A DNA stretch of 64,000 nucleotides, taken from contig CM075989.1 in NCBI GenBank assembly GCA_038087875.1, positions 21,144,001-21,208,000 on the forward strand. Reading direction: 5' to 3'. The position numbers and the translations under genes are program-made. Below the pieces are notes generated by a model. That model was not told where the DNA came from and made no database searches. It saw only the letters and a program-made list of their open reading frames with translations. The stretch comes from Malacoraja senta (taxonomy: Eukaryota). Shown in pieces: positions 45,961-49,148 of this stretch (within the stretch, counting starts at the first letter, position 1; each line of letters starts with the position of its first letter).

Positions 45961-46469
45961 ATATCAGGGAATTAACAGGTTTGCTCTGATGGACTCAGTG
46001 AACGAGAGGACTTCCTTCTCTGTCGTGAGAAATATAAATACATCAGGAGCAAGCTATATGTTTAACGATCTGTGGGGAAATGGCAGGAGACTGGAAGCCA
46101 GGCTAAAAGGAAATCCAAATGTTTATAAAGATATATAAATAGAATAAATAGTAAATTATGGTAAAGGATGGGTGGAGACCACTGTGGAGTAGAACGGAAA
46201 TCTATGCATGGAGGTTTGAGAGGTACTAAATAGGCGCTTGGTATTGCCGTTATCATGGGAGATATTTGAGATGCCGGTTCAATTAAAATGGAGAATGATA
46301 AAGGAGGTGAAAGACTGCACTTGAATTAGACTAGTTAGCAAGTCTGGAGAGTATTAGTCTTCCCAGAGAAAGTGAGGGTGGATATTGGAGTGGGACTGGC
46401 CACTTCCTTCCTTCGATACCTCGTGGTGCAAATCTCACATCCACATTCAACACTTTTGGAATGCACAGA

Positions 46470-46737
46470 GGCACAGCTGTAGAGATGTTGCCTTACTGAG
46501 ACCCAGGCTTAACTCTCACCTCGGGTGCTGCCGATACGGAGTTTGTACGTTCTCCCTGTAACCGCATGGGTTTCCACCCACACTCCAAAGACGTACAGGT
46601 TTGTAGGCCATTGGCTTCGGTAAAGATTGTAAATTGTCCCTAGTGTGTTGGATGGTGTGCGGAGATCGCTGGACAGCGCAGACTAGGTGGGCCGAAGGGC
46701 CTGTTTCTGTGCTGTCTCTAAACTAAACCAAACTAAA
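46470..46737 (+). mobile_element. HE1-like SINE
   Basis: Degenerate head, core and tail. Confidence 0.82.
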
Positions 46738-46861
46738 GGGTCAAGTCTCCAGGTCCCGTGTTCTTAAAACAAGGAGCTGGTGAGATTGTTGAAGTTTTGG
46801 TTTTAATTTTCAAAATTACCTTCTTCCTTTGAGTTAAATCGAACAATAGCAAATGATCAAT

Positions 46862-47268
46862 AGTTTAGTTTAATTTAATTTAGTTTAGAGATACAGCGCT
46901 GATACAGGCCCTTTGGCCCACTGAGTCCGCACCGACCAGCGATCCCCGCACGCTATCACTATCCTAGTCACACAAGGGAAATAAAAGAAAAATTATACCA
47001 AGCCAATTAACCGACAAACCCGTACATCTTTTGAGTGTGGGAGGAAAACCGATCTTGGAGAAAACCCATGCAGGTCACAGGGAGGATGCACAAACTCCAT
47101 ACAGACAAGCACATAGTCAGAATCTAACTGTCCTCAACGCTGCTAAGTTTCAGTGCTGATTAAAGATGTGTTTAAATCATATACTGTCTCTGGTGCTTGT
47201 TTACATGGTGTCAGAAGTGGGATGCGAACCCACGCCTCCAGTTAGCCCTACCGCTGCGCCACCATGCC
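46862..47268 (-). mobile_element. HE1-like SINE with its B-box region replaced by a foreign insert (~47125-47247)
   Basis: SINE runs from the tail to AGTCAGAATC and resumes at CTACCGCTGCGCCACCATGCC; about 34 nt of SINE are missing. Confidence 0.85.
47206..47240 (-). pseudogene. tRNA-Leu 3'-half copy including CCA (PBS plus extension)
   Basis: Minus strand TGGAGGCGTGGGTTCGCATCCCACTTCTGACACCA matches the vertebrate tRNA-Leu(CAA)-type 3' end as I recall it, with one mismatch. Confidence 0.85.
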
Positions 47269-47279
47269 GGCGAAGTCAC

Positions 47280-47510
47280 TGACAGAGAAAATGCTTCAAG
47301 GATATTTTCCAAGCCTCCCTGGAAAAGGACAACATCTTGACAATCGTTGGCCACAAACAGCGATAGGAATGCACAGCATCCCACTGCCACACTCATCCCC
47401 CCCAACACAACCTGTCCTACCGGACGCAGAGTTTGCAGATCCTGATTTTCCAACCTTCTCGGAATTAGAAAGGAAAGGAAAATTGTCCTTGACTCACTGG
47501 GACTACATAA
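47280..47510 (+). mobile_element. Degraded RTE-clade LINE C-terminal fragment
   Basis: Translates QRKCFKDIFQASLEKDNI, similar to the RTE motif GQRKRFKDTLKASLK. Confidence 0.55.
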
Positions 47511-47675
47511 GAAGATCCAACATCTCTGGAGAACAAGGATAGGTGACGTTTCAGGTTGGGACTTTCCTTCAGTCTGAAGAAGTGTCTAAAGTCCTTTAGA
47601 CTTTATAGATACAGCACAGAAACAGCTCCTTTGACCAACCAAATCTGCGGCGACCAGCAATCCCCCTACCCATGT

Positions 47676-47892
47676 GAAGGAAGGAACTGCAGATGTGGGT
47701 TGAAACCAAAGATAGACACATAAAGGTGGAGTAACTCAGCATCTCTGGAGAGAAGGAATGGGTGACGTTTCGGGTCGAGACCCTTCTCCAGATACCAATC
47801 CACGTTCTCCAGAGATGTTGCCTGACCCGCAGAGTTACTTGAGCGCATTTTGTCTTTATTTTTAAACCAGCATCTGCAGTTCCTTGTTTCTG
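47676..47892. mobile_element. Penelope-derived fold-back element
   Basis: Inverted pLTR arms. Confidence 0.78.
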
Positions 47893-49148
47893 CTCTCCAG
47901 GGAGAAGCAACGCTGGGCACAAACAGAAACCATTATACAGCGCAGGCAGCATTAAGTCGACACAAGGCCTACATCACTATCAACAGATGCCAGATTAATT
48001 GTGTTTCCCATTCTCTGCACCCATTTTCAGGGGCCATGCTGCATGGCCCCTGGAGTATTTTTATAGTAATCCATCTCACGACCCTAGATTCATTTAATAC
48101 TAAATTGACACCACACACGAGAGTTCAGAAATACTCCCTGCTCATCACCAAATGATTTACTACTGACAAAATTCTTTGCGACTCCCCTCACTCCTGGAAA
48201 TTCGGCAGACGGCAGCCAGAGAAAATTCAGCCTCATAATGTCACCCAATTTTATTTCACTCTACAAGATAAAATGGTTTTGTTAAGCAATACCTGCCACA
48301 GTTTAAGCGAACATTAGCAGTTCAAATATATTGGACACCATTCTTGCATTCCGGGGATATCTTTCAATATGAAGTTTGTTCTGCCTTCAAGTTCATTGTT
48401 AGAAGGTAGTCCGAGCCATGCCAATTTGTTGAGGACAATAAGCACCTGTGTAATATTCTAATTGTCTATTTTCAGCCCAATCCTAGTGTGGAATCCACTG
48501 GTATAATATATTTTTGTTGGCGATTTTGGAAGAAAATTCATCGTTCGGCAACTACTGCGGCAGAAAGGTGGGTTAAAAATATACAGAAAGGTTGTACTTG
48601 TAGATCCCATTGTCCTCTGTATATGTCCAAAAACAATCTTAGAAATGCATGAAACAGAACACATTTATATACGTAGATGAAAATTTCAAATTACTAAACA
48701 ATATACGGATGTATTTTATTATATCCAGTGCATTTCTTCTGCATTCTGTTGTAATTCTTTGGCGTGATTTATTATTCTGTTTCATTGTGGTTGAAAATTA
48801 CAGAATACTTAATTTCCAGTGGCGATAATGTTAAAAAATTAAAGTTTTAAAAATTCAGAATGTTGTCCGTCTGAATTAATCAAGTGAGCCTTTCTCTTGA
48901 AAAGTGCCCTTACGGGTAATTATCAATCACAAAATAAATCATTGCGCTTATGGTCTCCATACTACAATTTTTCTCAAAATATATAATTTTACAAGAATCT
49001 GTGCAGTTAAAAAAAACTTTAAACTGGAGGACGGTAGATGTGGAAACTATTCATTTTCTTGCTCCAAAAATCCCCATTTGTGGATAGTGTGTGCTCCAAT
49101 ACTTCAAGAGATTCCAGTAACTCTTTATTCCCCAGTTATTGATTGTGG

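Follow-up and report, generated by a model that had tools for sequence, protein, structure and literature searches.

Structure of the insert

The window analysed here is a stretch of 64,000 nucleotides (G000:C13:21144001-21208000) from a genome of 1.94 Gb. At 46860-47271 it contains a tRNA-headed SINE that is interrupted by foreign DNA, in which the end of an LTR is followed by a primer site and by further complement of a leucine tRNA. Positions in this complement are called places and are counted from the CCA end of the tRNA. The locus is made up as follows:

46860..47128, minus strand: older tRNA-headed SINE that hosts the insert, tail and body (the window has dozens of its copies)
47129..47205, plus strand: final 77 nt of a 209-nt Gypsy-type LTR, with the terminal CA (LTR-family matches)
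47206..47223, plus strand: 18-nt primer site, a perfect complement of tRNA-Leu including CCA
47224..47224, plus strand: G opposite tRNA A58, where T is expected (nucleotide 19 from the CCA end)
47225..47243, plus strand: read-through copy of tRNA-Leu(CAA), covering its T arm and one half of its variable arm (matches genes L130 and L137)
47244..47271, minus strand: 5' head of the interrupted SINE (A box)

The preliminary description of this locus had reported about 120 bp of foreign DNA in the SINE; the insert itself was confirmed, with an exact span of 47129-47243 (115 nt). Two of the lengths given there had to be revised. The replaced part of the SINE, put at about 34 nt, is 26 nt (between 47128 and 47244) when scored against other SINE copies (26 nt in 5/9 scored copies, 35 nt in 3/9 and 23 nt in 1/9), and the tRNA complement, said to extend to about 35 nt, reaches 38 nt (47243) in comparison with the tRNA-Leu(CAA) genes. 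No target duplication of 4-6 nt flanks the insert, in agreement with the absence of a TSD noted earlier, and the G at 47224 does lie at nucleotide 19, that is, at tRNA position 58. The place corresponding to the variable-loop base Ce2, 47241, is read correctly in the insert.

The LTR part carries a poly(A) signal (ATTAAA) at 47159-47164 and is short of the 5' 132 nt of the LTR. Its 77 nt show a median identity of 96%, and up to 100%, to 73 LTR hits; the best other SINE copy is 81% identical over 249 nt, and the kin of the SINE reach 81-84% at best. The right junction and the G are intact, with zero differences, in contigs from two runs on organism A (X1, 47211-47547; X2, 47214-47547), and their agreement indicates that the right junction is no assembly artefact; the contigs listed cover the right junction, none spans the left one, and X1 or X2 is possibly the assembly's own source. 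ARAGORN predicted no tRNA gene in the window, and Rfam gave no match in 46400-48000.

Two SINE copies, at 46500-46735 and 46860-47271, lie head to tail-inverted less than 130 nt apart, and such an inverted pair (46500-47271) could be a setting that favours breaks. At 47352-47353, about 110 nt from the insert, organisms B (65-66 nt) and D (about 53 nt) carry extra DNA.

The donor LTR family

Alignment of 47125-47205 to LTRs, which the preliminary description had proposed, recovered an LTR family with this 3' end. The family is large, with the 77 nt present at 42 places among those listed (40 scored of 1516 candidates). Its LTR measures about 209 nt in 18/18 fetched copies (201-209 nt where scored), and most have 5-bp duplications. 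The LTRs have TG...CA ends, the primer site follows the 5' LTR, and a purine tract before the 3' LTR was seen in two copies (L004, L010). A Pfam search of the six frames of L226 gave the domain order protease (below the cut-off)-RT-RNase H-integrase, by which the donor family is Ty3/Gypsy.

The native primer site of the family is usually imperfect. In 8/11 copies with a native leader it differs from the tRNA at place 4 and at places 16-17, whereas the window insert and the read-through copies have the tRNA letters at the places where native leaders differ. Because the native site is usually imperfect, the primer site of the window was likely copied from the tRNA, which in turn points to plus-strand cDNA. 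The native leader itself (L013, L016, L018, L021-L030) resembles the complement of the tRNA T stem and variable arm with a 3-nt gap; it is either an old read-through that became established in the family or a primer-pairing site of extended length, comparable in the latter case to the HIV primer activation signal.

Over-long primer sites across the genome

A pattern with places 1-15 and 24-31 fixed and places 16-23 free matched 412 over-long sites genome-wide, and the reversed control gave 0 matches; this contrast, together with the identity of the 77-nt LTR piece, rules out that the insert arose by chance. From the 100 matches listed, all on contig C1, 92 were fetched. After 4 duplicates had been dropped, they comprised 88 distinct junctions in 47 LTR clusters, which rules out a single amplified subfamily as the source of the counts. 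The tRNA copy is preceded by CA in 90/92 cases, with a poly(A) signal at most 70 nt away in 85/92. A LINE-made tRNA retropseudogene would take the form of a lone tRNA copy with its own duplication and no LTR, and the LTR context of these copies does not match that form.

The extensions of the class range from 27 to 87 nt. A canonical plus-strand strong-stop product would end at 18 nt, before m1A58, and the window copy runs to 38 nt. The ends of the extensions peak at place 35, just before Ce2 (27/88), a peak to which the scoring of the mismatch at place 36 contributes in part; an end at place 23, in the U54/U55 region, was seen in 1/100. Among the first 100 of 1269 LTR-end plus primer sites, which are consecutive and unselected exact sites, 36 are read through, a proportion that describes perfect primer sites, probably enriched for aberrant products, and not all insertions. 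Eleven of these 36 mismatch at place 19, and one more skips places 19-20. Many of the other 64 sites (L245-L312) have the primer site directly joined to internal or inverted element DNA, and premature plus-strand transfer thus seems common even without read-through.

For primers other than tRNA-Leu, one loose pattern gave 3 matches against 2 in the control and no LTR-linked case, a weak test in that it required ACA and one form of the T stem. Of the 3 matches, one is a Leu copy with mutations, one arose by chance and one is a copy of tRNA-Pro that lacks an LTR. At L183:1504-1600 (G000:C17:5074970), a CCA-ended tRNA-Pro complement of about 40 nt is joined to telomere-type repeats beside a SINE head, with no LTR, and this may be a break that was healed with tRNA cDNA and telomerase.

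Mismatches at A58

According to the preliminary description, mismatches should concentrate at place 19 if the copies had been made across m1A58, and such a concentration was found. Place 19 is mismatched in 38/88 independent junctions (A 24, C 12, G 2), against 5/440 at the non-CpG places 16-18, 22 and 23 (Fisher p 5e-28) and 12/176 at the CpG places 20-21 (Fisher p 6e-12). CpG decay was rejected as the cause, since place 19 is not a CpG and exceeds the places that are. In a wider pool the mismatch is present in 51/115 copies, with G in 3/115 (about 3%). All four bases occur at place 19 within the window's own LTR family, and the 17 exact G copies found genome-wide come from many LTR families. 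Judged from this pattern of bases, it is highly probable that the G at 47224 is a misincorporation opposite m1A58.

Mismatches at A58 were seen in 2/19 copies with LTRs at least 98% alike and in 8/20 older ones (p 0.065, tallied by eye), a trend that counts against the misincorporation reading, and differences in error rate between families are suggestive at most (p 0.06). A tandem array at L154:1150-1600 consists of 48-nt units, each with LTR end, primer site and tRNA extension; its last unit has G at place 19 and the others have T, and repeated rounds of copying on one molecule would give such an array.

Further peaks and the tRNA-Leu genes

Place 36 corresponds to the C in the variable loop named e2 or 47d and reads G in all genes. 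A count by eye of CAA-type copies with an anchor on either side, made after one gene row had been taken out of 86, found this place not to be G in 65/85 (A 53, T 8, C 4) and the next place changed in 1/85. In CAG-type LTR copies it is not G in 6/6 (5 independent, L171 and L173 counted apart), and in CAG genes or pseudogenes it is G in 7/7. The mismatches at places 19 and 36 are not linked (p 1.0). For Leu-CAG, m3Ce2 is known in human and zebrafish, and the available text of the same two sources does not give it for Leu-CAA (PMC5066629, PMC11417395).

Seven copies cross the anticodon, with the exons joined and without the intron that is present in all 4 CAA genes. Among these splice-junction-crossing copies, G37 (place 50), which is a known m1G site, is mismatched in 6/7; the copy ends at places 59-61 in three of them, and a mismatch at G26 in one is a hint only. 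L139:1501-1587 (minus strand; G000:C4936) shows an LTR end joined to an entire spliced tRNA-Leu(CAA) including CCA, with element DNA following. Here the read-through extends as far as the tRNA's 5' end, and both Pol III boxes are present. The CCA complement is found in all copies, and the intron is missing in the seven copies and in L139; the template was therefore mature tRNA, and the tail of the insert is almost certainly an RT copy of it.

The mismatches are concentrated at places 19, 36 and 50, in the manner of a methylation signature, and are absent from the assembled genes. The tRNA gene search gave 14 hits, of which 11 are genes or pseudogenes with a T arm, and all 11 have A58. A tRNA-Leu gene with C58, and an LTR family leader that already holds the extension, were two alternatives named in the preliminary description; the former was not found among these 11 nor the latter among the native leaders, so that a variant gene or a pre-existing extension was rejected as the source. 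For the primers used, the assembled gene set is incomplete: of the common T38 isodecoder it contains only a form with an altered place 20, and no single assembled gene has the combination of letters seen in the CAG-type copies. From the assembly alone, an unassembled gene with A at place 36 could still be a source; four bases at one place, two isodecoders and two isoacceptors argue against variant genes. The two genes for the commonest primer isodecoder, L137 and L138 (G000:C7:13402204, 13461245), have A at tRNA position 57, where most read-through copies of that isodecoder have G, and either a gene is missing from the assembly or the gene changed after copying.

A further reading takes the G at 47224, like the variants in general at places 19, 36 and 50, to be a later point mutation or to derive from a variant tRNA gene. 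A single base in a single copy proves little, the copies are 1-14% diverged with more mismatches in the older ones, and the gene set is incomplete as described. However, the neighbouring non-CpG places are altered in only about 1% of copies, the spectrum consists mostly of T to A transversions, and diverged pseudogenes retain A58. In addition, three separate peaks coincide with known methylation sites, and G is found in about 3% of read-through copies, while drift would be expected to produce it in well under 1%. Thus, an origin of these variants by mutation or from variant genes is very unlikely.

Fates of the read-through copies

Most read-through copies continue into element DNA. Pol-like DNA lies within 600 nt downstream in 82/108 copies. 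When 40 copies were followed over 8 kb, a second LTR was present in 22 and a 5-bp duplication in 17, of which 16 are perfect; over 1.5 kb, 18 of 92 copies had a second LTR, 11 of those with a duplication. The junction between the tRNA tail and internal DNA shows 3-9 shared nt in 5/8 copies of the window's family and about 2 in 1/8, with none visible in 2/8.

Several other forms were observed. Mini-elements with duplications are represented by L046, L094, L123 and L127. Fold-backs, in which the tRNA tail is followed by an inverted primer site or LTR, are found at L007/L009/L017/L020, L105, L145 and L051. L180 is a full LTR in a SINE, with no duplication and with a short shared sequence at the tRNA end, and about ten other full LTRs have host DNA after the tail. 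About 5/92 copies have a 5'-cut LTR with element DNA following; automatic calls of truncated LTRs, which are unreliable for poorly sampled families, were left out of the counts.

These forms can be accommodated in one scheme. RT on the mature tRNA primer would run past the m1A58 stop and insert a wrong base there. The first plus strand would thus copy the tRNA too far and would then be displaced, probably in the manner of the dead-end plus strand of Ty3. Its over-long tRNA tail, unable to pair with the primer site, would mis-prime on the growing minus strand, and the common outcome would be deleted elements with two good ends that are inserted by integrase. Other outcomes would be fold-backs, mini-elements, one-ended insertions and, as for the window copy, a loose fragment patched into a break. 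We hold with considerable confidence that read-through past m1A58 took place and left a record of the modification in the genome.

Entry of the window copy into the SINE

The window copy has no LTR start, no second LTR and no duplication, and thus none of the marks of an integrase-made insertion. Its features are those of Ty1-type capture: a 77-nt fragment of the LTR end, the loss of 26 nt and no duplication. Microhomology at the right junction is a possible CAGT (4 nt), deduced from 2/2 SINE copies of the same subtype, and at the left it is imperfect. Contigs from organisms B and D match the window from 47248 rightwards and then have 20 and 27 further letters unlike it, the mismatch left of 47248 being known by length and not by letters; these related organisms appear to lack the insert. 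The difference between the identity of the LTR piece (96-100%) and that of the SINE to its kin (about 80%), together with these contigs, indicates that the insert is younger than the SINE.

On the same grounds, a chimeric SINE formed at insertion was rejected. This could have come about through a template switch of a LINE RT, from the SINE RNA to a tRNA-linked minus strong-stop and back, and its polarity would fit, as the tRNA piece and the SINE head run in the same direction. Nevertheless, the disparity in kin identity just given and the organism B and D contigs, which have the flank in common with the window and differ from it left of 47248, make such a switch extremely unlikely.

Two further scenarios assume an insert that is younger than the SINE. 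The first assumes a one-ended insertion of a complete LTR together with the tRNA tail, followed by a deletion that took away the 5' 132 nt of this LTR as well as a few SINE bases. L180 and the roughly ten comparable full-LTR copies illustrate such insertions, and the 5'-cut LTRs before element DNA in about 5/92 copies indicate that later deletion is able to yield the left end of the window copy. However, this scenario needs a second event within a short time (1-4% divergence) that was confined to the 26-nt gap, and we regard it as a possibility of lesser weight. In the second, the 115 nt were copied during break repair from another genomic read-through copy, so that the RT event took place elsewhere. 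There are hundreds of potential donors, and at least 16 read-through copies belong to the family among those fetched; yet the same LTR and extension recur in none of the other 16 exact G copies, as found by a search that needed a 22-nt exact match in an assembly with gaps. Copying from a donor is therefore improbable, and the modification record would stand even if the 115 nt had come from one.

The simplest single event for the window copy is the capture of a loose fragment at a break, which we favour by a modest degree of confidence. The proposal of the preliminary description that cDNA was captured at a break fits this copy, although it is unproven and is not the usual fate: break capture is a minority fate, most copies continuing into element DNA, many of them with duplications.

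Occurrence in other genomes

A contig of organism B contains an LTR end, the primer site and an extension to place 38. A metagenome scan gave 28 matches, or 17 distinct junctions by filter, with T at place 19 in 14 and A in 3; the A rows include two that seem to stem from a single locus, and the pattern fixed all other places, so that these matches speak for presence and not for rate. One metagenome match crosses the splice junction.

Implications and comparison with known systems

Taken together, it is reasonably probable that Gypsy elements primed by tRNA-Leu have written single-molecule reads of tRNA into animal germ lines. Each genome would hold hundreds of integrated, datable copies that record m1A58, m3Ce2 (including an unreported site in Leu-CAA), m1G37 and perhaps m2,2G26, so that past and present germ-line states of tRNA modification could be read from assemblies, and the rescue of read-through products would be a major source of deleted non-autonomous elements as well as of new elements headed by a tRNA. 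If this is true, it amounts to a record of RNA modification that is made in vivo, inherited and datable and can be read from DNA without RNA, in which the paired LTRs, here 86-100% alike, date each event. The variable loop of tRNA-Leu(CAA) is then predicted to contain m3C, and read-through becomes a concrete source of internally deleted elements. Such tRNA look-alikes can also mislead read mapping exactly where modifications are called. Ohshima et al. in 1993 reportedly proposed a tRNA fused to an LTR end as an intermediate in the origin of tRNA-headed SINEs, and L139, with its spliced tRNA and LTR end, resembles that precursor.

A genome-wide, inherited class of copies with a record of several modifications was not encountered in the literature searched, in which older and subscription papers are poorly covered. 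In its available text, PMC7472051 considered modification errors only inside the 18-nt site and rejected them there, and the accessible parts of PMC10924933 and PMC6894440 contain no genomic modification record.

As in the retroviral strong stop, the plus strand copies the tRNA primer. According to the available parts of the sources, plus-strand synthesis normally stops at m1A58, and longer HIV-1 products end at later modified bases (PMC8599865, PMC13191261); over-long plus strands are there stated, for HIV-1, not to be integrable (PMC8599865). In contrast, hundreds of over-long copies are fixed here in a germ-line genome, many with 5-bp duplications, and failure of the m1A58 stop would be common for these Gypsy enzymes and not a dead end. 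The ends also differ from those of HIV-1, as they cluster at the variable loop and anticodon arm and hardly at U54/U55, with the mismatches retained.

Deletions that start from the primer site in retroviruses, sometimes with extra tRNA sequence, and tRNA sequence at circle junctions were reportedly described by Pulsinelli and Temin in 1991 and by Colicelli and Goff in 1986. Unlike the present class, those mutants are said to have been rare single clones from culture, with no modification statistics.

Among the yeast elements, the first, tRNA-copying plus strand of Ty3 is described as a displaced dead end that stops after 12 nt (PMC5371799, available text). The present elements are likewise of Gypsy type, and an unused tRNA-copying strand would explain why native primer sites are imperfect and aberrant ones perfect; whereas no inheritance was reported for yeast Ty1 or Ty3, the copies here are 27 to 87 nt long and have been rescued into insertions. 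Ty1 cDNA that is captured at double-strand breaks (Moore and Haber 1996, Teng et al. 1996; via the available text of PMC7175516) likewise contributes about 100 nt from the end of the LTR, with a small deletion but without a duplication. The window copy differs in being natural, inherited and from an animal, and in its 38-nt tRNA tail with a modification mismatch; the break is inferred.

The peaks at A58, Ce2 and G37 resemble the RT signatures of tRNA-seq, in which mismatches and stops are described at m1A58, m3Ce2/47d and m1G37 in the available text of PMC4787781, PMC5066629 and PMC11417395. Unlike those signatures, for which a demethylase control can be applied that is impossible here, the present ones were written in vivo by endogenous RTs into chromosomes over evolutionary time. 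All the single steps have precedents, namely the m1A58 stop, minor read-through, RT signatures and cDNA capture.
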